Shown here piece by piece: positions 2,895-46,400 of a DNA stretch of 64,000 bases. The DNA comes from Bacteroidales bacterium (GTDB taxonomy: Bacteria > Bacteroidota > Bacteroidia > Bacteroidales > GCA-2711565): positions 3,505,495 to 3,569,494 of the forward strand of contig OY787449.1 in the NCBI GenBank assembly GCA_963678785.1. The letters are read 5' to 3'. Under the pieces are notes generated by a model. It was not told the DNA's origin. It saw only the letters and a program-made list of their open reading frames with translations, and did no database searches. A program made the translations under genes and the position numbers. Positions within the stretch are counted from its first letter, which is position 1. Every line of letters starts with the position of its first letter.

Positions 2895-4424
2895 TTACTT
2901 TATTTTAGGTATAATCCATTTTGGAGAAGGGTTTTCCATATTTTCGTTTAACCCAGATCGATCTCCACTTCTTAGAAATTCTTTAAGACCATTTTTAAAA
3001 TCCGCCGATTGCTTCATGGTTACATTCATTGCACTATGTGGGCCTCTTTTTACAGATACAAATTTTATATCCTTAAAATATGGAGCCAATTCAAGCGCAT
3101 TTTCATATGGAGTACTTCTGTCCCATGTTCCTTGTATTAGTAGTGTAGGAATGTCTGATTCAAAATTCTGACGAAAATCATCTCCTAAATCACTATCCCA
3201 GCAGGGACAACCTTTGATGTATCCCCAACCAGTTTCAATAATTTGATTGGCAGGATCTGTTAAGTATTCTTCAAGTCTTTCCATGGTGATACCAGAACCA
3301 CAATCCAGCATAAAATAACTTGCCGTTTTAAAATTGCGGCTTCTGTTATTGTATGATTGAACAAATTTTTTGGCTGCTTCGGTAAAGTCTCCGTTATAAA
3401 GTGTAATAATATCAGCAGGCCAGGCGGCTAGATTGTTAGAATAACCTCTGGCTAATTTTTTAGCAGAGCTCTCATCAAACAATACTTTTTGAGGCTTATT
3501 GGTTTTAGGATCGATAACTTCAACCGTTACTGGATTTGCTTTTAAACGACTTTGAATGGTTTTAACTGCTTCAATAAGACCACCTTCAGGAATTAATCCT
3601 TTTAATCCGGGTGCCTCCTCAGCTTCTTTAGCCATTCTTTTAAAAACATTCCAGGCATGACCGGGATGGTCATAAGTATGATCGGGCCCTTCTACTCCAG
3701 TTAAAATGGCACGTGCAATTAAATCAGGATACATTCTCATCATTACCATGCCCCAATGCGATCCAAAACTTCCGCCCATAATTGAGATTTTATCATAACC
3801 GAAAGCTTTACGTACGTCATTAACATCCTGAGCTGCTTCTAAAACAGTAAATCCTTTAAGATCTACTCCCAGTTCTTCCCAAACTTTTCTTTCTTCTTTT
3901 AGCAGTTTTTGATATTTAACAGTTGCCAATTCGTCATTATATGCAACATCAGGAGGCATGGCTTCTGTGGTTCTATCAATAGTAGTTGTAGGCTTTGAAG
4001 GACCAATTCCTCTTTGACTCACAACTACAACATCGGATACATCAAGTAAGTATTTAATTCTATTTTCGAAGTAGCCTGCTGTTTGCTCAAACCTTTTTTC
4101 CAAACCCTGAAAACTAGGGCCACCATATAATACGAAAACAGGAGGTGTTTTTGGATCTGCCTTTTCAGTTGCCTTAAATCGATATACGTCTAATGAAATA
4201 ACATCGCTATCTTTTTTAGATCTGTTAAGAGGAACAAAAAAAGTAGCCCGTTCGGCATTATATAAACTACCATCTTCCAAAGAAATTCTTTCCGGAAAAA
4301 TAAACATACTACCAGCTTTTGGTGCAGGTGCTTTTACAGTATGGAATGACATTTTCTGAGAAAAAGCCAAACTACTCATAACGAGTAATATTACAATAAG
4401 AAATAATTGTTTTCTCTTATACAT
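2895..4424 (-). CDS. Secreted alpha/beta hydrolase, S33 (TAP/prolyl- or tripeptidyl-aminopeptidase-like), paralog A
   Basis: 509 aa. It has the signal peptide MYKRKQLFLIVILLVMSSLAFSQ and the nucleophile elbow GGSFGSHWG (G-x-S-x-G). It is colinear with, and clearly paralogous to, the next ORF. Confidence 0.65.
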   Translation of the reverse strand: MYKRKQLFLIVILLVMSSLAFSQKMSFHTVKAPAPKAGSMFIFPERISLEDGSLYNAERATFFVPLNRSKKDSDVISLDVYRFKATEKADPKTPPVFVLYGGPSFQGLEKRFEQTAGYFENRIKYLLDVSDVVVVSQRGIGPSKPTTTIDRTTEAMPPDVAYNDELATVKYQKLLKEERKVWEELGVDLKGFTVLEAAQDVNDVRKAFGYDKISIMGGSFGSHWGMVMMRMYPDLIARAILTGVEGPDHTYDHPGHAWNVFKRMAKEAEEAPGLKGLIPEGGLIEAVKTIQSRLKANPVTVEVIDPKTNKPQKVLFDESSAKKLARGYSNNLAAWPADIITLYNGDFTEAAKKFVQSYNNRSRNFKTASYFMLDCGSGITMERLEEYLTDPANQIIETGWGYIKGCPCWDSDLGDDFRQNFESDIPTLLIQGTWDRSTPYENALELAPYFKDIKFVSVKRGPHSAMNVTMKQSADFKNGLKEFLRSGDRSGLNENMENPSPKWIIPKIK

Positions 4425-4459
4425 AATTCTATAATATTTAGGTTAATTGATGCTTTTTT

Positions 4460-4495
4460 AACAACCTTCTGAGAATGAAACCTTAGAAGGTTGTT
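4460..4495. other. Intercistronic stem-loop between the two hydrolase paralogs
   Basis: There is a perfect 11-bp inverted repeat: AACAACCTTCT (4460-4470) and AGAAGGTTGTT (4485-4495), with a 14-nt loop. No U-run follows it on the minus (coding) strand, so it is not a canonical terminator. Confidence 0.5.
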
Positions 4496-4508
4496 GTGAA
4501 AGTGTAAG

Positions 4509-6032
4509 TTACAATTCGGGTACTACCCATTTAAGTTTTGGAAGTTCCATCTCATCATCTAATCCTGAGCTGTCTCCACTTTCAGCAAATTTTAGTATTC
4601 CTTGTTTAAATTCTTCTGAATAGTCGTATGCAGCACGAATTGCACCATGTGGGCCACGAATTAACTTGACGAATTTTGAATTTTTAAAGTAAGGAAGTAA
4701 TTCTGTTGCATTTTCATATGGTGTACTTCTATCCCATGTTCCCTGAACGATTAGGGTAGGAATATTTGTTTCGAAATTTGTTCGGAAATCATCTCCCAAA
4801 TCACTATCCCAACAAGGACATCCATTGATATAACCCCATCCTGTTTGAAGGAGCTTGGTAGCAGGATCTGCTAAATGTTCTTTAAGTCTTTCAGCAGTAA
4901 TTCCTGACCCGCAATCAAGCATATAGTAGCTTGCTGTTTTAAAACGACGTCCACTGTTTGTATATCTTCTAACAACTCGTTCAGCAGCCTTTGTAAAATC
5001 GCCATTATACATGGTAATAATGTCTGATGGCCAGGCTTCCAGTTTGTTTGAATAACCTCTTGAAAGCTGTTTTGCTGAATGGGCGTCAAATAAAACTTTT
5101 TGCATTTTATTTGTAACAGGATTTTTAATTTCTACTGTTACAGGGTTTTTTGTAAGTCTGTCTACAATGGTTTCAACGGCTTTGATAAGTCCGCCCTTAG
5201 GAATAAATCTCTTTAATTCTTTAGAATTCTCAGCCTCTTCTGCCATTCTCTTATATACATTCCAGGTATGACCAGGATGATCATAGGTGTGGTCAACGCC
5301 TTCCATGCCTCTTAATAGGGCACGTTCAATAATTTCGGGGTGCAGTCGCATTAAAGACATACCCCAGTGTGAACCGAAGCTGCCGCCCCATAGGGTAATT
5401 TTGTCGTATCCAAAAGCTTTTCTTACATCATTGATGTCTTCAGCTGCTTCCAAAACAGTGAAGCCTTTAAGATCTATCCCCAGATCTTCCCATACTTTTC
5501 TTTCTTTTGTAAGTATTTTTTGTAATTGTTCCACTGCTACTTTATCATTATAGGCAACATCTGGAGGTAATACTTCAGTTGTATTTTCAACAAGGGTTGT
5601 TGGTTTTGAAGGACCTATTCCACGTTGACTAACTACAACAACATCTGCAACATCAAGCATAAATTGCCACCTTTTCTCAAAAGTTCCCGGCACAGCTAAT
5701 TGGTCTTCTAATCCCTGGAAACTTGGACCTCCGTGAAGATAAAAAATAGGAGGTGTATTGGGGTTTGCCTTTTCAGTTGCTTTAAAACGATAAACGTCTA
5801 ATGAAATTACATCACTGTTCTCTTTCGATCGATTGAGGGGAACAAAGAATGTAGCTCTTTCGGCATTGAAAAATCCACCATCTTCTAATACAATTCTTTC
5901 AGGAAAGATAAACATGCTACCAGCTTCGGGTGCTGGTGCTTTGGTGGTGTGAAATGATGTTTTTTGTGCATTGGTTAAGGTGCTTATACAAAGTATTAGC
6001 ACCATGACCAACAAGTTTTTTTTCTGATACAT
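4509..6032 (-). CDS. Secreted alpha/beta hydrolase, S33 (TAP-like), paralog B
   Basis: 507 aa. It has the signal peptide MYQKKNLLVMVLILCISTLTNAQ and a GGSFGSHWG motif. Long identical blocks are shared with paralog A (AGSMFIFPERI, NAERATFFVPLNRSK, VVVVSQRGIGPSKPTT, GCPCWDSDLGDDFR, QGTWDRSTPYENA). Confidence 0.65.
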   Translation of the reverse strand: MYQKKNLLVMVLILCISTLTNAQKTSFHTTKAPAPEAGSMFIFPERIVLEDGGFFNAERATFFVPLNRSKENSDVISLDVYRFKATEKANPNTPPIFYLHGGPSFQGLEDQLAVPGTFEKRWQFMLDVADVVVVSQRGIGPSKPTTLVENTTEVLPPDVAYNDKVAVEQLQKILTKERKVWEDLGIDLKGFTVLEAAEDINDVRKAFGYDKITLWGGSFGSHWGMSLMRLHPEIIERALLRGMEGVDHTYDHPGHTWNVYKRMAEEAENSKELKRFIPKGGLIKAVETIVDRLTKNPVTVEIKNPVTNKMQKVLFDAHSAKQLSRGYSNKLEAWPSDIITMYNGDFTKAAERVVRRYTNSGRRFKTASYYMLDCGSGITAERLKEHLADPATKLLQTGWGYINGCPCWDSDLGDDFRTNFETNIPTLIVQGTWDRSTPYENATELLPYFKNSKFVKLIRGPHGAIRAAYDYSEEFKQGILKFAESGDSSGLDDEMELPKLKWVVPEL

Positions 6033-7027: not shown

Positions 7028-9130
7028 ATGAAAAGCCATTTGTTCAATTATAGGATGATGAGAAAAGCAATCATAATTCTTAAATCTCATCAGTCAAATA
7101 TTATTAAAGGATTGTTGTTTCTTTTGTCTATTGTTCTTTTGGTGATTATATTTCCAAAAGAAGGTAAATTCAAATATGAGTTTCAAAAAGGCCGACCATG
7201 GATGCATCGTGATTTAATTGCCACTTATGATTTTGCGATTCTGAAGCCCGAGGCAGAGATAGAAGTTGAGCAAAAAAGATTATTGGAAAATGTTAAGCCA
7301 TACTTTGTTTATGATGAGGATTTAACACTTGAAAAGCAAGATGAAATCTATGAATTATTTGAAACAAAATGGAATGAAAAGTATATAGACTCACCGATAA
7401 GCGAGTTAAAAAAGAATCGCAATTGGTTTACATGCAGTATGATTTATGATACCGTAATCACTGTTGGTGTCATCGAAAGTTTGAGCGAAATTGATAACCT
7501 AAATGTGAATAAAGGTTTAATCCTCATTAGAGGAAATCTTGCAGAAGAGATTGGTTTTAACGAGGTTTTTAGCATACAGTCAGCTTACGAATATTTGCGT
7601 ATTGCAACCTCTCGTGATTCAACCATGGATATATCTTTATTGATGAATACCCTTGAGTCTTCGTTAATCAGAAATATAAAATTTGACAAGATTAAAACTG
7701 AAGAAGCACAACAGCAGGCTTTAATTAACCTTTCAAGAACAAGGGGAATGGTTCAAACCGGAGAACGTATTATCTCAAAAGGTGAGTTGGTTTCGGCTGA
7801 GAAATTTCAGATTCTGGAATCAATGAAAAAGGAATACGAAGAGCAGTTGGGTTCTTCAGCAACTTATTATATGATTGTGTTGGGGCAAATCATACTCATT
7901 ACCATTTCAATGGTTGTTTTGCTGTTTTTCCTTTTGTATTTCAGAAACGAAATTTTTGAAAACAACATCCAAATCGCATTGATTTTGCTGGTCGTCATCA
8001 TGATGGTTTTTATTACAAGTCTTGTGATTGAGTATAATGTTGGCTATTTGTATTTAGTACCCATTTGTATCATCCCACTTATTATCCGATCATTTTTTGA
8101 TACCAGACCAGCGCTATATGTCCATATCATTACAATCATTATTATTGGGTTCTTGGTTCCCAATAGTTTCGAATTTGTTTTCCTACAGCTAATTGCAGGA
8201 ATTGTGGCTATTATAAGCATTGTAAAATTGCAGCGAAGGGCTCAGTTTTTTTTAAGTTCTTTTATGATATTTCTTACCTATTCAGCAGTTTATTTTGGTT
8301 TAAGTTTGATACAAGAAGGAAGTTTGATGGGAATGGATTGGAAGGTTTTTATGCTTTTTGCAGGAAGTGCTATTTTAACCCTGTTTTCTTATCCTTTAAT
8401 TTATTTATTTGAGAAAGTATTTGGTTTAATTACGGATGTAACTTTGATTGAATTATCAAATACGAATAATAATTTACTAAGAGAATTATCATCAAAAGCA
8501 CCTGGAACCTTTCAACACTCCATGCAGGTAGCAAATTTAGCAGAAGAGATTTTGTTTGAAATTGGAGGAAATACACTTTTGGCCAGGACCGGGGCTTTAT
8601 ATCATGATATTGGAAAAATGGATACTCCTGTTTATTTTGTAGAAAACCAACAAGCTGGGACTAATCCACATGATAAACTCGATCCGGATGATAGTGCCAA
8701 GATTATTGTGAAACACATTCGTAGAGGCGTTCAACTTGCAAAAAAATATAATTTACCAAAGCAGGTAATTGATTTTATAATCACTCACCAGGGAAACAGA
8801 AGGGTTGAGTATTTCTATCATATGAAGAAGAATATGGTGAATGAGGAAGAAATAAATCAAAGTTTTTACACTTATCCGGGGCCTATACCGATGAGTCGTG
8901 AAACTGCTGTTGTTATGATGGCTGATTCTGTTGAAGCTGCTTCGAGAAGCATCAAAGAACCCACAGAAGATTCTATTAATAAGCTTGTTGAAAATATTAT
9001 AGATAAGCAAATTGAAGCTGATCAATTCATCGATTCAAATATTACTTTTAGAGAGATCACAAAGATTAAAGAAATTCTTAAAAAGAAGCTTTTAAATATT
9101 TATCATGTAAGAATTGAGTATCCTGAATAA
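7028..9130 (+). CDS. 7TM-receptor HD/HDIG phosphohydrolase (PgpH-like, candidate cyclic-di-AMP phosphodiesterase)
   Basis: 700 aa. It has an N-terminal extracytoplasmic region, a block of about seven hydrophobic helices (aa ~280-470), and then an HD domain containing GALYHDIGKM (HDIG motif). The start may be M10/M11. Confidence 0.75.
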   Translation: MKSHLFNYRMMRKAIIILKSHQSNIIKGLLFLLSIVLLVIIFPKEGKFKYEFQKGRPWMHRDLIATYDFAILKPEAEIEVEQKRLLENVKPYFVYDEDLTLEKQDEIYELFETKWNEKYIDSPISELKKNRNWFTCSMIYDTVITVGVIESLSEIDNLNVNKGLILIRGNLAEEIGFNEVFSIQSAYEYLRIATSRDSTMDISLLMNTLESSLIRNIKFDKIKTEEAQQQALINLSRTRGMVQTGERIISKGELVSAEKFQILESMKKEYEEQLGSSATYYMIVLGQIILITISMVVLLFFLLYFRNEIFENNIQIALILLVVIMMVFITSLVIEYNVGYLYLVPICIIPLIIRSFFDTRPALYVHIITIIIIGFLVPNSFEFVFLQLIAGIVAIISIVKLQRRAQFFLSSFMIFLTYSAVYFGLSLIQEGSLMGMDWKVFMLFAGSAILTLFSYPLIYLFEKVFGLITDVTLIELSNTNNNLLRELSSKAPGTFQHSMQVANLAEEILFEIGGNTLLARTGALYHDIGKMDTPVYFVENQQAGTNPHDKLDPDDSAKIIVKHIRRGVQLAKKYNLPKQVIDFIITHQGNRRVEYFYHMKKNMVNEEEINQSFYTYPGPIPMSRETAVVMMADSVEAASRSIKEPTEDSINKLVENIIDKQIEADQFIDSNITFREITKIKEILKKKLLNIYHVRIEYPE

Positions 9131-37036: not shown

Positions 37037-39070
37037 TTAATTTGCTAATGCTTCGTCAAGTAATGCTTTCCAAAGATCAACTTGAGCTTGTTGAGCAACC
37101 AATTCTGCTTCAAGTTCTGCTAAGTCAGCCATGAATTTGTCATAGTTAACAAGACCATTTGCATAAGTCCATTCAGCAACACCAACAGCAATTTCAGAAG
37201 CAGTTACAGTACCTTGAGCAGTTACAATCGCAGCTTCAAATACAGTTAAGAAATTGTCATTAACAACACCTAATGCAGTATATAAACCTTTAACTGTGAT
37301 CAAAGTCGCAAGTTCAGCATTTCTAAGAGTTACAACGCTGTCTAATAATCTCATTGGTTCGAATGCTAATGCTAATGCATCTGCAGCAGCAGTTTTAGCA
37401 GTGGCAGCAGCAGTTTTAGCAGCTAATTTAGCATCTACAGTTGCTTGTAATCCTGCTACGAAATCATCGTAGTATGCAGCTTTCCAAGTTTCATAATCTG
37501 GACGAACAGCTTCTTTATAAGCTTCAGCAAGAGTCACAGCATTTAATAAATCAGCCATGAAAGTTTGGTGATATAGATAATCAGATGTTAGATCTGGCAA
37601 TGCAGCAGTAAGAACTGCAACACGTGCTATTCTAGTAGTTTTAGCAGTGTTAAGACCAGTGATTGTTGAGTTTCTTGCAGTAAGTAATGCAGCAAAACCA
37701 GTTACAGCTGTATCAACTTTTGCGTTTTGAGTAGTTACAGATGTGTTATAAGCTAAGAATGCAGCAGCAGTATCAACAACAGCAGCAGGAATAGTAACAG
37801 TTGCTAAAGTACCTTTTTCCCAATACAGGATAGTACTGTCAGCTGAATTGATACCAATTGTTGCAGCTAAAGCAACATCACCAGCAGAGAAACGAAGTCT
37901 TTGTGCAGCTAATGAGTCAGTTAAAACTTGTAACTGTGCAGCTTTAGTATTATAAGAAGTAGAATCAGCTTCCCAGGCAGCAACAGAAGCTACATAAGCA
38001 GCCAATTTAGCTACAGTATCAGCATTGTACAAATTGATAGAATCTGTGTACATTCCAGCTGTGTCAGTATGAAGTGCGATAAGAGCGTCAATGTCAGTAG
38101 TTCCTAATGCAATAGTATCTAAAGCATTATAATAAAGGGTAGCTGAAGTTGCTGTGTCAGTAGCACCTGCAGTTAATCTTGTATTTGTGTTTGTTACACT
38201 GTCAAGAGCAGCTTTCCAGAAATCAGGAACTGGATGTGTTCCAATGGTGTCTGATAAGAATGTAGTTTCTGCATTAGCAAGTGCAGTTAAAGCAGTTGTG
38301 TAAGCAGTTGAAGCAGTTGTATAAGCAGCAGCGGCAGCAATATAAGCAGCATTTTCTACAGCAGTATCAGCTTCTAAAGCTTGCTTTTCAATAGCTAAAT
38401 TAGCTAATTCATGACGAAGCAAAGTAGAATCATTATACAAATCTGCAATTTTAGCAACAGTTGCGTCAGCATCACCTAAAAGCGCTTTAGCAGCAACTAA
38501 CTCATCTTGTAAAACAGCAAGTGCAGCTTGGTCAGCAGCTAAAGTAGCTTTAGCTGCAGTAAGTGCTGAATCTGTACCATTAACAAGGTCAAGATTTAAC
38601 ATTACTATTTGACGTTGCTTGTCATAAATAGCTTGTTGAGTAGCAGTTACAACAGCCATAGCAGCTGTGTATTTACCGAAATACAATGCTATTGCTGTTT
38701 CTTTAGCTGTTTGTACAGCTAGTAAATAAGCATCCTGTAAAGCATCGTCAGCACGTTGAGCAGCAGCAAGAGCAATCTTGTTAGTCTCAATTGTTTGTGC
38801 TAATGTTTCAAGAGCAAGTGCAGTAGCAGCATCAGTACCAGCAGCAGTTGCAAGATTCATTGCAGCAATAGCATTTTGTACAGCAGCTTGTGCTCTTGTG
38901 AGTTCTGCATCAGCATTCGCTTTGATAATTTCAGCTTGTGCTTTTGCATTTAAAAATGCGGCGTAAGCTGAACGTACCTCTTCGATACCTGGGCTTACTT
39001 CATTTTTCATACAGCTTGTTAAAAACAAAACTGAAGCGAAAAATGCGATCAGTGTAATTTTGATTTTCAT
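37037..39070 (-). CDS. Ala/Thr/Leu-rich, predicted all-alpha (coiled-coil-like) lipoprotein, function unknown
   Basis: 677 aa. It has a lipoprotein signal MKIKITLIAFFASVLFLTSC. I counted 26 Ala in the first 100 residues. The composition is low-complexity throughout but contains no exact repeat. Confidence 0.6.
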   Translation of the reverse strand: MKIKITLIAFFASVLFLTSCMKNEVSPGIEEVRSAYAAFLNAKAQAEIIKANADAELTRAQAAVQNAIAAMNLATAAGTDAATALALETLAQTIETNKIALAAAQRADDALQDAYLLAVQTAKETAIALYFGKYTAAMAVVTATQQAIYDKQRQIVMLNLDLVNGTDSALTAAKATLAADQAALAVLQDELVAAKALLGDADATVAKIADLYNDSTLLRHELANLAIEKQALEADTAVENAAYIAAAAAYTTASTAYTTALTALANAETTFLSDTIGTHPVPDFWKAALDSVTNTNTRLTAGATDTATSATLYYNALDTIALGTTDIDALIALHTDTAGMYTDSINLYNADTVAKLAAYVASVAAWEADSTSYNTKAAQLQVLTDSLAAQRLRFSAGDVALAATIGINSADSTILYWEKGTLATVTIPAAVVDTAAAFLAYNTSVTTQNAKVDTAVTGFAALLTARNSTITGLNTAKTTRIARVAVLTAALPDLTSDYLYHQTFMADLLNAVTLAEAYKEAVRPDYETWKAAYYDDFVAGLQATVDAKLAAKTAAATAKTAAADALALAFEPMRLLDSVVTLRNAELATLITVKGLYTALGVVNDNFLTVFEAAIVTAQGTVTASEIAVGVAEWTYANGLVNYDKFMADLAELEAELVAQQAQVDLWKALLDEALAN

Positions 39071-39122
39071 GAGTTTTTTTTTTGATTAAACAAATGATTA
39101 ATAAATAATATGAATTGATTAA

Positions 39123-39155
39123 GAAATTGCGCTTGAGATTCTCTCAATGAATTTC
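39123..39155. promoter_or_regulatory. Nested inverted repeat GAAATT-gcgc-TTGAGA-ttc-TCTCAA-tg-AATTTC
   Basis: Read directly from the sequence. It lies 53-85 bp upstream of the Ala-rich lipoprotein start (39070), in the divergent intergenic region shared with the Kelch/wHTH-like gene. Confidence 0.35.
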
Positions 39156-39539
39156 ACGATTTAATAACAAATATACCCTTTTCGTTTCTTTAATAAAAAC
39201 AAGTATGATTAGTAATAGGAGAAATATCAAATCCCCTATATTAAAATTGACTTAAATATACTGATAATCAAATATTAAAGTATAAATAATAATATGTGCA
39301 GAAATATGTAAAAATTGCGTATATTTGAGCAAAATTAAGGTTTTTCCAATACGGGAATATTTTATTCCCCTAAATATTTGGACTAAAATCAGAATGGTAA
39401 TATTTTTAATAGAAGGATTGTTATTGTTATGCTTCCAGAGGTTGTTATAAGAAGTTTTAAGAAGTTTTCTTGTAGAATGAATGTATCTATACGAAAAGAT
39501 GTTTTAGTTGATTTAAAGGCGTTTTTTATTAACAGTGTA

Positions 39540-40988
39540 ATGTTGAAAACTGCGCTGTTTTGTTTTGTGGTTTTTTCTCCTTATTTGGCCTATAATCAGG
39601 TAGAAGCGCCGCTTTTTATGGATCGACATGCTAAAACTTTGATAGAGGATACCTTTATATTAGGTTATATGGAGTCGAACCGTACCTTTTATATTCTTAC
39701 GCAAACCGAATATTGGGAATTGCAGATGGTGAGTGAACGGAATTGGGTTAAAAATTATTATCAACAAAATGATTTATTTAATGAATCTGAAATAAAAGAC
39801 CTTACCTGGATTACAACTGACAGTGCATCTTATTTGGTGACCGAAGGAGGTGGGTTTATTTATGAGTTTACCGGAAATTCAATTGTGAGATTGGAAAATT
39901 CATTCGATCAGCGATCAAATGAAGCCTCAACCTATTTTGTTCATCATAACTGTATCATGAATTTTGGGGGTTATGGTTTTTGGCAATACCCTTCTTTTGT
40001 TTCAAAATATGATTTGCATACCGAAAAGTTATCTTCTTTTATCCCAAGAGATGGTGTGTTAATACCACCATCACAAATCAGACCCTTATCATTGTACAAT
40101 GAAGAAAGTGCTTCCTTATATGTATGGGGAGGTGCTCAAGTGAGCTATACAAATTCTGTTTCAAGCCTTATTAATAATACCAACGAATTATGGAGTTTAA
40201 ACCTGAATGATAAACGATGGAATTTGATGGGACATGTAAATATGCCAATCGCTTTCGCGGATAATACAAACACCGATTCATTTATAACTTTTAAATCTGA
40301 TCAGGAGCTTTTTAGCATTTTAGGAGACCGGCTTTATGTGTTTAATATTTTCGATAATAAAATATCTACCTATAAAATAAGTGAGGATTTTGATTTAAAT
40401 GTCGATGCAAATATTCAACCTGCCTACAGTCATTCTCATAAGGTTTTAATGTTATCTTCCCTACCTTATCCAAACAGAAATGTGAGAAGGGTTCAATTTG
40501 TAAGTTTATCAAATTATAAATCAGAATTGGTTTCAGAAACCAAGCTTCAAAAAACACATCTCAAAACCATCATTAATTATAGCATTCTTGGTTTGAGTTT
40601 GCTCGGATTTATATTCCTTGTTTATTATTTATATAAAAATTATTATGTATACCGAAACAAACTGATCATTACGCGCTCAACAAAAGTGATTAAGTTTAAC
40701 ACCAAACATATTAAAGTGCTCGATCCTGAGGAATCTGATTTGGTATTCTGGATTGCACAAAGTGATGACTACGTTTCAACAAACTATATTATGGATCGCC
40801 CATCAGATGGGTCCCAGTCATACGAAAGTATGAAGAAAAGGAAATTACATACCATGAAATCCATAGAAGTTAAATTGGGTGCATTCTCTCAAGTGAAAAA
40901 ACCGGTTTTTATGGAAAAGAAATCTGTTGAAGACTTAAGACTTAAAGAATACAAACTCAATAATGAGTGGATTATTATCAAAGACTAA
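39540..40988 (+). CDS. Signal peptide / Kelch-like beta-propeller / single TM / C-terminal OmpR-PhoB-type winged-helix-like domain protein
   Basis: The likely start is M38 (MLKTALFCFVVFSPYLAYNQ); the ORF track starts at 39429. It has Kelch-like GG...W motifs (FGGYGFWQY, VWGGAQV...ELWSLNLNDKRW) and the TM segment TIINYSILGLSLLGFIFLVYYLY. By eye, the C-terminal ~110 aa align to the Trans_reg_C pattern (KHIKVLDPEESDLVFWIAQSDDYVSTNYIM...KKRKLHTMKSIEVKLG). Confidence 0.5.
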   Translation: MLKTALFCFVVFSPYLAYNQVEAPLFMDRHAKTLIEDTFILGYMESNRTFYILTQTEYWELQMVSERNWVKNYYQQNDLFNESEIKDLTWITTDSASYLVTEGGGFIYEFTGNSIVRLENSFDQRSNEASTYFVHHNCIMNFGGYGFWQYPSFVSKYDLHTEKLSSFIPRDGVLIPPSQIRPLSLYNEESASLYVWGGAQVSYTNSVSSLINNTNELWSLNLNDKRWNLMGHVNMPIAFADNTNTDSFITFKSDQELFSILGDRLYVFNIFDNKISTYKISEDFDLNVDANIQPAYSHSHKVLMLSSLPYPNRNVRRVQFVSLSNYKSELVSETKLQKTHLKTIINYSILGLSLLGFIFLVYYLYKNYYVYRNKLIITRSTKVIKFNTKHIKVLDPEESDLVFWIAQSDDYVSTNYIMDRPSDGSQSYESMKKRKLHTMKSIEVKLGAFSQVKKPVFMEKKSVEDLRLKEYKLNNEWIIIKD

Positions 40989-41002
40989 ATGCCTGGAGTA
41001 TT

Positions 41003-41170
41003 AAGATTCAAGATACAAGACTCAAGACACAAGATTCAAGACACAAGATTCAAGACACAAGATTCAAGATACAAGATTCAAGACACAAGATTCAAGATAC
41101 AAGATTCAAGACACAAGATTCAAGACACAAGATTCAAGATACAAGATTCAAGACACAAGATTCAAGATAT
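41003..41170. repeat. Tandem heptanucleotide array, 24 units of AAGAYWC (14-nt super-unit AAGATTCAAGAYAC x12)
   Basis: Read unit by unit from 41003: ATTC, ATAC, ACTC, ACAC, ATTC, ACAC, ATTC, ACAC, ATTC, ATAC, ATTC, ACAC, ATTC, ATAC, ATTC, ACAC, ATTC, ACAC, ATTC, ATAC, ATTC, ACAC, ATTC, ATAT, each preceded by AAG. A degenerate 25th unit, GAGATGT, follows. Confidence 0.95.
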
Positions 41171-41254
41171 GAGATGTTTGATTTTTGAGGATTTAAAGAG
41201 TTTGAACTTGAGATTTTATTTAAGTTTTTAGCTCTTTTATTCTAAGATCGAATA

Positions 41255-41761
41255 TCAATCTTGCCTATTTATTTTTCCTGTTTTAAAAGAATAAAACCTT
41301 TGTGTGAAATAGCTGTAAGTGACCACAAAAATGGTGGTGATTATTTTTGATGGAGTAGGGTAGATGCCAAAAACTTCGACAAATAATTTCAGAAACAGAT
41401 AATTAAGCAGGATAGCTCCGAATACAGTTACGGCATATCTGAATAATTGTATCCTCCCTTTGATTAATGATGAAGTAAATGTGATGTATTTAGCCAATAA
41501 AAACCCAGTAAAAAAAGTAATTGGAAACACAAAAATAAAAGCAGCAATGTGAGGACTCATAGCAACGACCCCAAGATCTACAATTTGTTTCTCTAAAATG
41601 AAATTATAGAATATAAAGTATAGGAAAATATCCAATGCTGTGTTTGCGCCTCCGGTAGCTGCATAGCGAAAGGTTTCGATGGGGATAAATTTGGAGAATG
41701 GAGGGTAAACCCAATTAATGATGTTGTTGATTAATTTTTGGATTGCAAGCAAAGGATTCAT
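41255..41761 (-). CDS. GtrA family membrane protein
   Basis: 168 aa with four TM segments. FRYAATGGANTALDIFLYFIFYNF is typical of the GtrA-like family. Confidence 0.75.
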   Translation of the reverse strand: MNPLLAIQKLINNIINWVYPPFSKFIPIETFRYAATGGANTALDIFLYFIFYNFILEKQIVDLGVVAMSPHIAAFIFVFPITFFTGFLLAKYITFTSSLIKGRIQLFRYAVTVFGAILLNYLFLKLFVEVFGIYPTPSKIITTIFVVTYSYFTQRFYSFKTGKINRQD

Positions 41762-41873
41762 TAAAGTTTATTTAGTTGGTCAAATTGATGTCGCGAATTT
41801 ACAATAAAAATTATTTTTTATTTGTTTATGTTTTTTGATTTTAACCTTAATATTGAAGGTTACTCCGAAAAAA

Positions 41874-41905
41874 GGGAAGGCTTCCCATATATGGGAAGCC
41901 TTCCC
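41874..41905 (-). terminator. Second of two tandem terminators after susD
   Basis: The stem is a perfect 14 bp, GGGAAGGCTTCCCA (41874-41887) / TGGGAAGCCTTCCC (41892-41905). A-run 41868-41873 gives a U-run on the minus transcript. Confidence 0.8.
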
Positions 41906-41916
41906 TTAAAATGAAA

Positions 41917-41954
41917 GAAAGAGGCTGTCTGATACTTTGCAGACAGCCTCTTTC
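41917..41954 (-). terminator. First terminator after susD
   Basis: The stem is a perfect 15 bp, GAAAGAGGCTGTCTG (41917-41931) / CAGACAGCCTCTTTC (41940-41954), with an 8-nt loop. A T-rich tract follows on the minus strand. Confidence 0.8.
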
Positions 41955-41987
41955 ATGTTTATTTAATCAATGTTCCTAATAAAAGGA

Positions 41988-43391
41988 TTAATAACCAGGA
42001 TTTTGAACCATGTTTTCATTCACATCCATTTCAAATTGACCAATGGCTAAAATGAATCGATCGCTTGGATAAGCAATATCACAAATGGTAGCAGTACAAT
42101 CTGTTCTGTGTACGCCCATTTTGTGTCTTGTTAAATCCCATAGTCTGCTTCCTTCGAAACAAAGTTCAAGTCTTCTTTCTAATAAGATCTCATCTAAAAG
42201 AGCTTGTCCTGTTGCTGTTACATCAGCTGCTGTTGGGTTTGCACGTTGTCGTACCATATCAACATCAGCTTGAGCAGCAGAAGCGTTGCCTAAATTGTAA
42301 TTTGCTTCAGCACGGATAAGATAAACATCAGCTAAACGAATAACCTGTGGATTGTTGTATCCTAAATTGTTTGCATATTTATTTACACGAGTTGTTCCGT
42401 AAATACCGCCACCAATAGTAAGGTCGGTTGCAAAAAGTGTACCTCTAACATCACCAGCAGGAAATAAATTAAGGATGTCTTCAGCTGGCAAATAGTCACC
42501 ATATCCGCTTCCTAAATACATACCTGCTAAAGCATCTGTACCTCGTTTGTCAGTTTCATTCATGTCTATTTCAAAAATAGCTTCTGAATGACCATCCTGA
42601 ATAAAAATATCGGCATAATTAGCATTACTTACTAAAGAATAGTTGCCGCTGTTTATTACATCATTAGCTGCAGAAAGTGCAGATGACCAATCCTCTTTAA
42701 ACATATATACTCTTGCCAATAAAGCTTTAACTGAGTTTCTGTTTAAAAAATGAGAATCATTATCATCATCAATAAGCCCAAGAGCAGTATTAAAATCTGC
42801 AATTACCTGATCGTAAACTTCCTTAACGGAACTACGAGCTGGTTTTTGGAATGGATCAACGGTTGTTACGATTGGAATACCCAGATGAGAAGCATCAGCA
42901 GTATAAGTATAATGTTGTCCATAAATACGAACTAGATCAAAATGAACTAAGGCTCTCAATGCATAAGCTTGACCTAAATAATTGTCAACATCAATATCAG
43001 TTTCAATAGAAAGCATTCTATTGGCTCTGTCAATTACCCGATAGGCATATTCAAAAATATTACCTGAAAGATTATTATTATCAGTTGCAGAACCAACATA
43101 TTCTGCCCAGTCGGAAGCACGGTTTGCACTGGCGTTTAATTTAACATCGTCACTCATGATGTCAGTTACAAGTGTGAAATATCTACCGTAGTAGTTAGAA
43201 CTTGATAAGCCATCATAGCAACCAACAACGGCAGCTTCAAAATCACCAACAGTGCTTAATGCTGCAGAAGTAGAAACTGCTTGCTGTGGTTGTAATTCTA
43301 GAAAATCTTTTGAACATGATACCGTGAAAAACACAACTAGTAACACTATCAGAGGAGATTTTCCTGATATTTTATTTATAAGTTTTTTCAT
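41988..43391 (-). CDS. susD: SusD/RagB family nutrient-binding outer-membrane lipoprotein
   Basis: 467 aa with lipobox FFTVSC. It has the typical SusD N-terminal pattern (SKDFLELQPQQAVS) and C-terminal ERRLELCFEGSRLWDLTR. Confidence 0.9.
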   Translation of the reverse strand: MKKLINKISGKSPLIVLLVVFFTVSCSKDFLELQPQQAVSTSAALSTVGDFEAAVVGCYDGLSSSNYYGRYFTLVTDIMSDDVKLNASANRASDWAEYVGSATDNNNLSGNIFEYAYRVIDRANRMLSIETDIDVDNYLGQAYALRALVHFDLVRIYGQHYTYTADASHLGIPIVTTVDPFQKPARSSVKEVYDQVIADFNTALGLIDDDNDSHFLNRNSVKALLARVYMFKEDWSSALSAANDVINSGNYSLVSNANYADIFIQDGHSEAIFEIDMNETDKRGTDALAGMYLGSGYGDYLPAEDILNLFPAGDVRGTLFATDLTIGGGIYGTTRVNKYANNLGYNNPQVIRLADVYLIRAEANYNLGNASAAQADVDMVRQRANPTAADVTATGQALLDEILLERRLELCFEGSRLWDLTRHKMGVHRTDCTATICDIAYPSDRFILAIGQFEMDVNENMVQNPGY

Positions 43392-43426
43392 AATTATATA
43401 TTTTAATTTTTTTACAAACTAGTTGA

Positions 43427-46400
43427 TTAAAATCCCACATTTACACCAAACGTAATGGTTTTTGATTTTGGTTGTAAACCATCAACTAAACCACTAACAC
43501 TAGCTTCTGGATCCAGATGTAAGTTCTCTTTGTCTCTAACCCAGGTAAGTAAGTTGTTACCTTTAACAAAAACTTTCAATGAAGAAATATCCAATTTGTC
43601 AATGATTGATTTACCGAAGGTATAAGATAAAGTAATATCTCTTAAACGAGCGTAAGTTGCATCGTATAAGTAACGAGTTTGATATTTTTGATTACTCTTA
43701 GTTGAGTTGCCCCATACCCACTGTGGGTAAGATGTCTCTTGTCCCGGAGTAGTCCATCTGTTTTCGAAGCCGTAAACATGTGTTCCCCTTGGAGTGTAAC
43801 GTCCGTCACCATCCAATACAAAACCAGCAACATCATATATATACTTATCAAGTACAAATACAACTTGTGCACTTAAATCAAAGTTTTTGTAATGGATGTT
43901 GGTATTGATACCACCAAAAGCACTTGGTGTGGCAGATTTACCAGTATACCATCTATCTGCTTCACTTACGTCTTCTGTTGTAGTAGTCATAGATTCGTCA
44001 GTATACCACATTGCATGTCCGGTTTGAGGATTTACACCAGCCCAGTGCCACATATAATATTCGTAATAATCACGACCTTCTTCAGCTCGATGTGATCCAT
44101 TAAGGATAGGTTCATCAAGACGAGTAACTTCGTTTTTCATCATGGTTAAGTTAAACCCGAAATCCCAGCTAAAGTCAGCTGTTTTTGCAATCTCTGCATT
44201 CATCTCAAGCTCAATACCAGAGTTTAACATATCACCTACATTTTGAGTATTTGCATCAAAACCTGTAGTTGTTGAAAGTGGACGATCTAATAAAAGATCA
44301 GAGTTTTTTCTGTTAAAATAAGTGAAAGTAGCACTGATTCTGTCAAACATATATAAATCAACACCAATATCTAAAGTGCTTTGGCCTTCCCATGTTAACA
44401 TTGGGTTACCAATATTAGAAGGTGCTGAACCAGCAACACCGGCATAGTCATAACCGAAACCGTATAATGCCATGGCATCAAAGTTTCCGATACTTGCATT
44501 ACCAGTGATACCGTAAGATACTCGAAGTTTTAAATCGTTTAGCCAGTTTATATCAGCCATAAAATCTTCTTCGATGACTCTCCATGATCCACCAATTGAC
44601 CAGAAGTTACCCCAACGACTGTCTTCACCAAAACGAGAAGATCCATCACGACGGAAACTAGCAGTAGCATAATATTTACCACCATAATTATAAGAGAATC
44701 TTGAGAACATAGAAGCAAAACTATATTGAGTTCCTGCACTCCAAGCTAATGTTGGATTTGCAGCACTTGCTAAAGTTCTTAAAGTAGGATTTGGAAACCC
44801 TTCACCTCTGGCTTGTACAGCTCTTCTGTCATATTTTTGAGCTTCATAACCTAATAATGCATCAAAGTTATGCTTGTCGCCAAATAGTTTGTTGTAATTT
44901 AAAGTTTGAGTTCCGATCCAGTTGGTACTGTTGATTGAAGCTTCATTACTTCGGCCACCAACACGACGACCATCACCATAACGTGCATTTTCGAATTCGA
45001 ATTCATGAATTCCAATCAAGTCAAAACTCCATGCTGATTTGAAGGTCAAATCTTCACGAATCTTATAACTGGCTGAAAGGTTATCAAGAATACGGGTTTG
45101 CTTTTGCCATCTTTCGTCTTCTAACAAACGTCCAACAGGGTTGGCACCACCCATAAAGAAACTTTTGTGATCAGCATAATATAAACCTTGCTCATCATAA
45201 ATAGGAACAACAGGGGCAACTAGATAGGCACCGTACATTGGGTTATCCCATGCAGTACCATCACTTGTACCATTTGATTCGGTTCTACCAACAGTAATAT
45301 TATTGGTAATGGTTAATTTGTCAGTAAGATCTGCTTTGATATTTAATCTGGAAGAAAAACGATTGAAGTCAGTTCCAATCAATACACCTTCCTGATCATA
45401 ATATCCAATAGAAGCAAAATAAGAAATACCTTTTGCTCCACCGCTTACATCAACATTATACTGTTGAGTAATACCGGTTCTCATGATATCTTCAAGCCAG
45501 TTGTGATCGGCTGGATCTGGAAAATAATTGTCAAATCTTGCTTGAGCTTGAGCTAAAGTTTCACCTTTATTCATATAACCTTCGAGGAATAAGGTTGTAT
45601 ATTGATCTGCATTAAGTGCCTCATGTCTGCCGTTATAAGCATTGTCAGAGAAACCAGTTTGAGCACTAAAATTAATTTTAGCTTTTCCTGATTTACCACC
45701 TTTAGTTGTAATAAGAATTACACCGTTTGCACCACGAGAACCATAAATAGCGGTTGCAGATGCATCTTTTAATACGGATAAACTCTCAATGTCATTGGGG
45801 TTGATGGTTGACATGATGTTTGAAGATCGTCCACCATTGTCAAATCCAGTTTCTGAATCGGCTCCTGTTTGAACAGGGATACCATCAATAACATATAATG
45901 GAGCACTTGAAGCATTAATTGATCCAATACCACGAATACGTATCTGAGTTGCAGCACCTGGCTGACCGTCATTGGCATTCATTTGAAGACCAACAACACC
46001 TCCTTGTAATGAACTTTCTAGAGAGGCAACCGGTACCATTTCAAATTTTTCGCTACCAACTACTTCAACGGCACCTGTCAGTGCTTCTTTGGTTGATGTA
46101 CCGTAACCAATAACTACAACTTCTTCAAGACCAACAAGGTCTAATTCTAAAGCTACATTTAAGGTTGATGCTTGACCAACAGCTAATTCCTGATGCTTAA
46201 ATCCAATAAATGAAAATTTAAGGACTGCACTTGCATTTGGAATTGTTAGTTGATACTTACCATCGATGTCGGTTGTTACACCAGTGGTTGTTCCGATAAC
46301 CATTACTGTTACACCTGGGAGGGTTGATCCATCCTCAGCACTTGTAACCGTACCAGTTACGACTCTTCCCTGAGCAAAAGAAATTTGCATTCCAAGGAAG

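Follow-up and report, generated by a model that had tools for sequence, protein, structure and literature searches.

An array of 24 head-to-tail heptanucleotides in the genome of a Bacteroidales bacterium is probably a slippage-generated minisatellite, or long simple-sequence repeat (SSR), that expanded in place in a 3′ untranslated gap. The array occupies positions 41003-41170 of the stretch analysed here (the window: 64,000 nucleotides of contig OY787449.1, assembly GCA_963678785.1, positions 3,505,495 to 3,569,494 of the forward strand). The window genome belongs to the Bacteroidota, and the array separates 2 convergent genes: a plus-strand gene for a membrane-anchored beta-propeller protein and a minus-strand gene of the GtrA family; SusC/SusD genes adjoin the locus. 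We describe the internal order of the array, the fate of the same site in related genomes, the distribution of similar arrays across bacteria, and the gene and hairpin on either side. We then weigh slippage against alternatives in which the array is an operator, a mobile element, a binding platform, a coding sequence, or an artefact.

Architecture and position of the array

The array is 168 nt long and, read on the plus strand, is built of contiguous heptamers that alternate to form a 14-nt super-unit repeated 12 times. Odd-numbered units are AAGATTC, with unit 3 (AAGACTC) as the sole exception; even-numbered units are AAGACAC or AAGATAC (together AAGAYAC), apart from unit 24, which is AAGATAT. 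An initial annotation had described this alternation and super-unit correctly, and its count of 24 contiguous heptamers stands; its single formula for all of them, AAGAYWC, fits 23 of the 24. Tandem Repeats Finder (TRF) reports a period of 14, 11.8 copies, 94% matches, and a score of 295, which makes the array by far the strongest tandem repeat of the window. With up to 2 mismatches allowed, the 14-mer matches 13 times in the 64 kb, always within the array, against 0.88 matches expected from shuffled sequence (13 matches were reached in 0 of 100 shuffles); at the same threshold, the window holds no second copy outside the array.

A 70-nt higher-order period, also recognised in the initial annotation, is real. 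The blocks at 41031-41100 (five 14-mers) and 41101-41170 differ at a single base (C at 41100, T at 41170), and comparison of the array with itself yields 38 mismatches in 161 positions at a shift of 7, 11 in 154 at 14, and 4 in 98 at 70. The near-identity of the 2 blocks points to a recent block duplication. The uninterrupted units extend far beyond chance length, as in long SSRs and minisatellites; the near-identical blocks, together with a 2-unit seed in the closest relative described below, are the marks of a recent expansion.

The TAA codon of the upstream gene lies at 40986-40988 and is followed by a 14-nt spacer (40989-41002; ATGCCTGGAGTATT) and then by the array, whose end is 84 nt away from the stop codon of the convergent GtrA gene (41255-41257). 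Both stop codons thus flank the array, which sits between 2 convergent 3′ ends, as first annotated, and in no promoter position. On the plus strand, the order is stop codon, 14 nt, 168 nt of unstructured array, a terminator-like hairpin, and the gtrA stop. A clustered regularly interspaced short palindromic repeat (CRISPR) array is rejected, as it was at the outset, given contiguous heptamers with no spacers; a contingency SSR for phase variation, likewise dismissed earlier, is rejected on the location of the array downstream of both stops. Promoters of Bacteroidetes carry a -7 motif with the consensus TAnnTTTG; such a motif on the minus strand was rejected by eye, as TATCTTGA misfits it. A short run of AAGACTT (2.3 copies; 40930-40945) lies 58 nt 5′ of the array, in codons of the invariant protein motif EDLRLKEY, and its likeness to the array unit is probably coincidental.

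Turnover at the orthologous site

Orthologous loci were gathered by exact-protein look-ups, with at least 1 locus from a metagenome scan, and the stretch between the 2 stop codons was compared. In the window (100% protein identity), 266 nt and 24 units separate the stops. In L046, the relative at 87% identity, the gap is 202 nt; the window spacer ATGCCTGGAGTATT aligns there with TTATCCAGAATTTT, and the 2-unit seed ATTCAAGACACAAGATC, the only trace of the repeat, follows at the array position. Three loci, L052 (75%), L047 (73%), and L050 (66%), keep both genes across a 13-nt gap with no repeat. The remaining loci carry unrelated arrays, which begin directly after the orthologous stop codon: about 27 copies of AAAGRTA followed by 5 of GTCTAAY in L048 (70%), about 10 copies of the 16-mer YTAGAGTTTGGAGTGC with a 23S_rRNA_IVP gene inserted behind them in L053, L054, and L055 (74%), and about 7 ATAAGTT-like units followed by a canonical terminator in L056 (70%). 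The short-read contig L049 breaks inside an array of the L048 type. In all 7 distinct orthologous loci with gtrA downstream, the AAGAYWC array is absent, vestigial, or unrelated; it is not conserved with its flanking genes.

The seed in L046 occupies the homologous position, which favors in-place expansion over the insertion of an element. Expansion would have started from a 2-unit seed like this one. Slipped-strand mispairing or unequal exchange would have added single heptamers at the beginning, 14-mers after that, and a 70-nt block in the final step. The array would persist because insertions are tolerated between stop codon and terminator; it would be transcribed as an unstructured, A-rich segment of the 3′ untranslated region (UTR) of the upstream gene, with a copy number that probably varies among strains. 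On this account, the array would have no sequence-specific partner in the neighboring protein, and any effect would be that of a length-variable spacer or 3′ UTR.

Length differences between closely related loci are found for other arrays. Beside a gene that is 94% identical, 6 units in L013 contrast with at least 15 in L042, and a convergent intergenic region measures 835 nt in L004 (2775-3609) versus 187 nt in L023 (1554-1740), with flanking proteins 98-99% identical. In this Crocinitomicaceae pair, the size gap stems from tandem duplication of modules, each of which combines AAGAYWC heptamers with a small hairpin (GGATTCCCAAATCC) and with ARTCT octamers in inverted order. Short arrays, in turn, can be stable (L024 versus L027). 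The alternative offered in the initial annotation, a hypermutable variable-number tandem repeat, fits the recent 70-nt duplication, the contrast between the L046 seed and the expanded array, and the differences within the L013/L042 and L004/L023 pairs.

The GtrA gene (41255-41761, minus strand; Pfam PF04138, GtrA_DPMS_TM, E = 1.1e-11) bears traces of change at the same junction. After the motif RFYSFKTG, the protein ends in K[FL][IL]KK[QE][IM][PV][DS] in the 3 array-less loci; in most array-bearing loci, the tail is different and shorter (KINRQD, IMKR, SLKSK, or KFKRVVSA; window tail region 41255-41275). These differences between array and array-less loci indicate that junction rearrangements rewrote the last gtrA codons. 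In L053, as in L054 and L055, the region 4064-4640 holds a 23S_rRNA_IVP gene (PF05635; 4219-4578) between the orthologous gene and gtrA. It is flanked by inverted arrays of the YTAGAGTTTGGAGTGC 16-mer, with about 10 copies on one side and about 2 on the other, an arrangement that looks like a foldback cassette.

Distribution of the repeat across bacteria

A single scan with AAGATTCAAGAYACAAGATTC across 185,579 species genomes, in which about 4 kb of flanking DNA was fetched on each side, returned 45 loci in 35 genomes; by our own arithmetic, a random 21-mer would match about 2 times if base composition were uniform. In most cases, the match is part of a longer AAGANNN array. Among the hosts are Bacteroidota, Nitrospirae, Delta- and Betaproteobacteria, Verrucomicrobia, Lentisphaerae, Ignavibacteria, and 2 lineages of the candidate phyla radiation, and AT-rich arrays occur within GC-rich proteobacterial genomes. 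Two genomes have 2 loci each, and HGW-Bacteroidetes-17 has 9. Within the unit, variation is highest at positions 5-6 (entropy of 1.1-1.6 bits versus 0.6-0.9 elsewhere), in part because of the way the loci were ascertained.

The genes beside these arrays have little in common. A tblastn search with the beta-propeller protein and GtrA found no match in the fetched flanks of the 45 loci, and all-against-all blastp of 375 flanking open reading frames (ORFs) recovered nothing beyond pairs of orthologous loci and a generic similarity among ATPases. Ten small array-adjacent ORFs fell into 10 unrelated Pfam families, none of them 23S_rRNA_IVP, and Rfam gave no match on 6 related loci. Between the window and the fetched loci, the repeat is the only shared sequence. 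A string search of the literature for AAGATTC-type arrays matched only loop sequences of short hairpin RNAs.

HGW-Bacteroidetes-17 presents an arrangement of its own. A conserved element of about 95 nt (...GATCTAAGCATTTCTCATGAAACTGGTTCAGTATGTCTGAAATTTAGCCTTTTGAGCTAATAAGACGTTAGA), with no match in Rfam, is dispersed in this genome just after gene stop codons; it usually precedes TAGA/TCTAAY heptamers and a reverse-complement AAGAYWC array. Copies lie at 5069-5182 and 7130-7236 of L012, 5088-5197 of L026, 5526-5640 of L035, and 7314-7397 of L044.

In a tally of orientation, 9 arrays were co-directional with their neighbors and sense, 11 were co-directional and antisense, 7 lay between convergent genes, and 1 was in a doubtful divergent position. 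Arrays therefore avoid promoter-only regions and have no overall strand preference. In nearly every case, a gene 3′ end adjoins the array. A bias toward the sense orientation relative to the upstream gene was accordingly rejected by this systematic count (9 versus 11).

Foldbacks and other heptamers

A complementary partner array lies within 250 nt at 11 of 46 loci, and the foldback hairpins can be very stable: -53 kcal/mol in L029 (z = -11.6), with z = -9.3 in L017, -8.5 in L041, and -6.0 in L025. No inverted partner was found for the window array, the best match being 10 of 14 positions.

Genomes with AAGAYWC arrays are also rich in other heptamer arrays. TRF reports about 196 arrays in all DNA fetched, and in 116 of them the period is a multiple of 7 (7, 14, 21, 28, 35, or 42), with many different units. 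In a Chitinophagia metagenome-assembled genome, L037 (400-6340) carries 7 different heptamer arrays in 8 kb, with units that include TATGAAC, GTCTGAA, ATTCACC, TAATTGA, AGCTAAT, and CGGTCAA; one of them folds back on itself between convergent genes, and a long ORF contains two others. This locus suggests a genome-wide process that generates heptamer duplications.

In viral contigs, the real 21-mer had no match, and a reversed control pattern had 3, all of them heptamer foldbacks; phages are therefore not the carriers of the AAGAYWC repeat, and similar behavior is seen in other heptamers. Phage contigs L060 (~8110-8145), L061 (6576-6647), and L062 (3184-3254) have GTTCNNN / NNNGAAC foldbacks in short intergenic regions; that of L061 (-26.9 kcal/mol, z = -4.0) has a T-run behind it and lies ahead of a ribosome-binding site. 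From the foldbacks of the reversed control and the many other heptamers, the conserved feature is therefore the 7-nt period together with the 3′-end location, not the AAGAYWC unit.

A terminator-like hairpin downstream of the array

The initial annotation had seen no convincing terminator hairpin between the 2 genes. Folding reveals one on the plus strand: a long, AU-rich, imperfect hairpin with a U-rich tail at 41173-41256, a candidate intrinsic terminator of the plus-strand gene. The segment 41164-41270 folds at -30.4 kcal/mol (z = -5.31), with 0 of 200 shuffles as stable; UAUUUAUUUUU lies 3′ of the hairpin, and the 3′ arm overlaps the GtrA stop. The minus strand of the same segment folds weakly (-11 kcal/mol, z = -1.6). 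A stable hairpin and a U-tract 3′ of the stop codon, the features of an intrinsic terminator, are thus present on the plus strand only, and transcription would terminate here. A simple terminator scan missed the hairpin because its stem is rich in AU and GU pairs and has few G-C pairs. The corresponding region of L046 does not fold significantly (z = -0.8), and Rfam, searched on 38000-44000 at E <= 1, gave nothing beyond sub-threshold miRNA-like matches to the hairpin. The plus-strand RNA of the array itself is essentially unstructured (centroid 0 kcal/mol, z = +1.8). Farther downstream, between the gtrA start region and a SusD-like gene, a perfect 15-bp GC-rich palindrome (GAAAGAGGCTGTCTG...CAGACAGCCTCTTTC; 41917-41954) with T-runs on either side looks like a canonical bidirectional terminator.

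The upstream membrane protein and the regulator idea

The upstream gene (39540-40988, plus strand) encodes a signal or transmembrane segment, a Kelch-like beta-propeller, a transmembrane helix, and a conserved C-terminal domain of 110 aa (40656-40985). The ORF can also be read from 39429, with the ATG at 39540 as the likely true start. Pfam matches are weak (Beta-prop_ATRN-LZTR1 and Kelch), and all 24 homologues have one common architecture. The C-terminal domain has a mean column identity of 82% across orthologues; it has no Pfam match at E <= 10, and a PDB profile search returned only noise. The AlphaFold2 model of the domain (pLDDT 79, pTM 0.69; the other 4 of 5 models reached 46-59) finds its best Foldseek matches among DNA-binding domains of the OmpR/PhoB type, with 1kgs on top (E = 0.016) and with YycF, AdeR, SaeR, BaeR, and CadC also among them; these matches span E = 0.016-0.3 and TM scores of 0.5-0.6. 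The earlier label of the domain as winged-helix-like is therefore plausible but weakly supported: the predicted fold points weakly to it, and sequence searches in Pfam and the PDB gave no match.

This label had led to the proposal that the array is the target, sink, or insulator of the adjacent domain, by analogy with ToxR, a membrane-anchored protein with an OmpR-like winged helix that binds TTTTGAT heptads upstream of ctxAB. The analogy has its appeal: both pictures combine units of 7 bp in tandem with a protein that is anchored in the membrane and has an OmpR-like winged helix, and the array lies directly 3′ of the gene. The ToxR heptads, however, belong to a promoter and act on transcription initiation, whereas the window array sits where two genes end, fails to accompany the gene in orthologous loci, and has unrelated neighbors elsewhere. 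The domain is near-invariant, yet the repeat is absent at 3 orthologous loci (L052, L047, and L050), vestigial at 1, and replaced by unrelated units at 3; conversely, the AAGAYWC repeat stands next to unrelated genes at 45 loci in 35 genomes, with no homologue of the protein in the fetched flanks. The 7-bp period is also at odds with the proposal, since the direct repeats recognised by OmpR-type domains are spaced at about 10-11 bp. Orthologues that have the gene with no repeat, and a repeat scattered over many loci that have no tie to this gene family, are both outcomes that the initial annotation had itself named as refuting its proposal. Judged by locus comparison, the regulator-operator idea appears effectively refuted, and we consider it very unlikely.

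A direct repeat with a 10-bp period, TAAGAAGTTT in 2.5 copies, lies at 39444-39468, 75-95 nt upstream of the ATG at 39540, and L046 carries a similar one (TTTAAGAAG, 2 copies). As a candidate site for an OmpR-like domain, this repeat is more natural than the array at the 3′ end. Upstream of the gene, the minus strand at 37037-39070 encodes a 677-aa, alanine/threonine-rich, lipoprotein-like ORF with internal 12- and 21-nt repeats and no Pfam match; its place next to an OmpA-like porin gene is conserved in all orthologous loci.

Relation to known repeats

Several families of short repeats invite comparison. The short tandemly repeated repetitive (STRR) heptamers of heterocystous cyanobacteria, reportedly described by Mazel and colleagues in 1990, are likewise tandem heptanucleotide arrays in intergenic DNA whose function is unsettled. 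They are built from other units (for example, CCCCAGT) and are highly multicopy per genome, whereas the AAGAYWC array occurs once in 64 kb.

Heptanucleotides are the most abundant class of long SSR in most SSR-rich prokaryotic genomes, and slippage has been blamed (Mrazek 2007, summarised in PMC4679880). As that summary presents them, such SSRs share with our arrays head-to-tail 7-nt units, a mostly intergenic location, sporadic occurrence across phyla, and variable length. The window array differs from the SSRs so summarised in its 14- and 70-nt order and in its place between a stop codon and a terminator-like hairpin; the recurrence of the AAGAYWC unit family in many phyla is not described in that survey as summarised there. 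A close parallel is found in the TAACTGA direct repeats, which are patchy in Beggiatoaceae, Cyanobacteria, and Bacteroidetes (MacGregor 2015, PMC4679880); the examples from Bacteroidetes include long arrays that also contain other heptamers and that are missing from the same intergenic region of close relatives (PMC4679880). Both repeats are intergenic heptamer direct repeats, patchy across phyla and absent in relatives. In the Beggiatoaceae strain BOGUAY, the TAACTGA repeats are mostly short, forward, and just upstream of start codons, whereas AAGAYWC arrays lie at 3′ ends in either orientation.

Heptad arrays that are bound by protein are also known, from a single well-studied case. The omega protein of plasmid pSM19035, a ParB of the ribbon-helix-helix (RHH) type, binds heptad arrays that serve as parS sites and operators (PMC9499535, PMC2441792). 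These consist, like ours, of contiguous 7-bp units, in direct and inverted order in the case of omega; they are made of 7-10 WATCACW units in promoters of a plasmid partition and copy-control regulon, whereas the window array is chromosomal and at 3′ ends. An omega-type parS or operator is rejected given the different unit, the lack of adjacent RHH or ParA genes, and the 3′-end location. Repetitive extragenic palindromes (REP), bacterial interspersed mosaic elements (BIME), and a minisatellite-bearing MITE (a miniature transposable element with inverted repeats) of Porphyromonas gingivalis (PMC4596501) form another group. REP and BIME are small non-coding repeats downstream of genes, and the foldback relatives in L029, L017, and L041 resemble intercistronic palindromes. 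In contrast to REP, BIME, and the P. gingivalis MITE, no defined ends, target-site duplications, or transposase were found, and the window copy is a one-armed direct array. The window array is best read as a recently expanded member of the known class of heptanucleotide simple-sequence arrays.

Weighing the explanations

Slippage with expansion in place remains the probable origin, and a number of observations weigh against it. All 9 sense arrays are nearer to the upstream stop codon than to the downstream start, at distances of -4 to 77 nt with a median of 6 nt. The same 14-mer dialect is found across phyla and at the 9 loci of HGW-Bacteroidetes-17; pure independent slippage does not predict such a shared dialect, which hints at dispersal or selection. 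Unit variation is concentrated at positions 5-6, an effect to which ascertainment contributes. Tandem arrays occupy a single site in several lineages of a family whose genomes are otherwise poor in them; the repeated appearance of arrays at one stop codon could mean that there is selection on this spot to carry an array. Finally, hypervariability in the window species itself is something we infer.

Two alternatives make the array more than a by-product of replication. It may belong to a dispersed, possibly mobile, MITE- or REP-like foldback element that inserts at gene 3′ ends, with the window copy one-armed or decayed. The strong hairpins formed by nearly a quarter of the loci would be the arms of such an element; the 9 loci of HGW-Bacteroidetes-17, several joined to the ~95-nt element and shared flanks, the 2 genomes with paired loci, the AT-rich arrays in GC-rich proteobacteria, the IVP gene between inverted 16-mers at the orthologous site in L053, and the replaced GtrA tails all agree with movement. 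Yet the window array lacks an inverted partner, shares nothing but the repeat with the fetched loci, and has a single copy in the window; attempts to define terminal inverted repeats or target-site duplications gave none, the neighborhood holds neither a transposase nor any other gene that recurs, and the L046 seed favors growth in place. We regard a mobile origin as doubtful. A neighboring idea is that of a functional cis-element, recognised by some conserved factor of the host: the array might be a 3′ UTR or single-stranded DNA platform for a cold-shock or oligonucleotide-binding (OB)-fold protein that covers about 7 nt per domain, a loading site for Rho, or a set of double-stranded heptads of the RHH type. 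A CAAGA-like core that is kept while positions 5-6 vary, recurrence across phyla and of the array-bearing state at the orthologous site in several lineages, the start of sense arrays within a few nucleotides of stop codons, and an unusually unstructured RNA with more C than G (3 C and 2 G per 14-mer) are what such a factor would leave. Precedents are the direct and inverted heptads of pSM19035, which are genuine protein-binding sites (PMC9499535), and the proposal by MacGregor that S1, Csp, or CsrA binds the TAACTGA repeats (PMC4679880). This picture fits poorly with arrays in either orientation to their flanking genes (9 sense versus 11 antisense), with unrelated units at the orthologous site and 3 lineages with none, with the many other heptamer units in genomes that carry AAGAYWC arrays, with a control pattern that finds phage foldbacks where the real one finds nothing, and with neighborhoods free of a partition, RHH, or other candidate partner gene; we judge it unlikely.

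The last 2 alternatives carry far less weight than these. Mis-assembly or a mistaken copy number gains some color from short-read contigs that end inside such arrays (L049, L042, L018, and L007), but the array is just 168 nt long, a single contig of 4.10 Mb is on record with the identical protein, and the internal pattern of variants is unlike that of a collapsed or chimeric repeat; an artefact is scarcely credible. Translation of the array is the other, with an ATG at 40989, right after the TAA, opening an 80-codon frame for a repeat peptide of the KIQDTRF/KIQDSRH type. All 3 plus-strand frames are indeed open across the array (ORFs 40967-41188 and 40989-41231), as follows from a unit that lacks stop triplets. 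Neither the ATG nor the frame exists in L046, L048, L053, or L056, and a 7-nt period does not preserve the frame when copy number changes. On this lack of conservation, the repeat peptide is rejected, with next to no probability left to it.

Significance

The finding removes the regulatory story for this locus: the repeat is very unlikely to be the operator of its neighbor, and a terminator-like hairpin is present. It is possible, if improbable on present evidence, that the AAGAYWC arrays and their foldback forms make up a coherent cross-phylum family of 3′-end elements, either a non-autonomous spreading foldback or a platform of 7-nt sites. If so, the binder of the platform would be a conserved single-strand-binding (OB-fold/cold-shock-type) or heptad-binding protein with an effect on termination, on the 3′ ends of mRNA, or on convergent transcription; the array of the window would count as a member of unusual length, and the recurrence of arrays at one stop codon would mean targeting or selection. 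In practical terms, such arrays break short-read assemblies and are possible strain markers. Heptanucleotide arrays are the commonest class of long SSR in many bacteria, and neither the preference for 7 nt nor the function is understood. Clustering at 3′ ends, arms of very stable hairpins in about a quarter of arrays, turnover of units at one orthologous site, and the spread of one dialect across loci in some genomes make this old question more testable.

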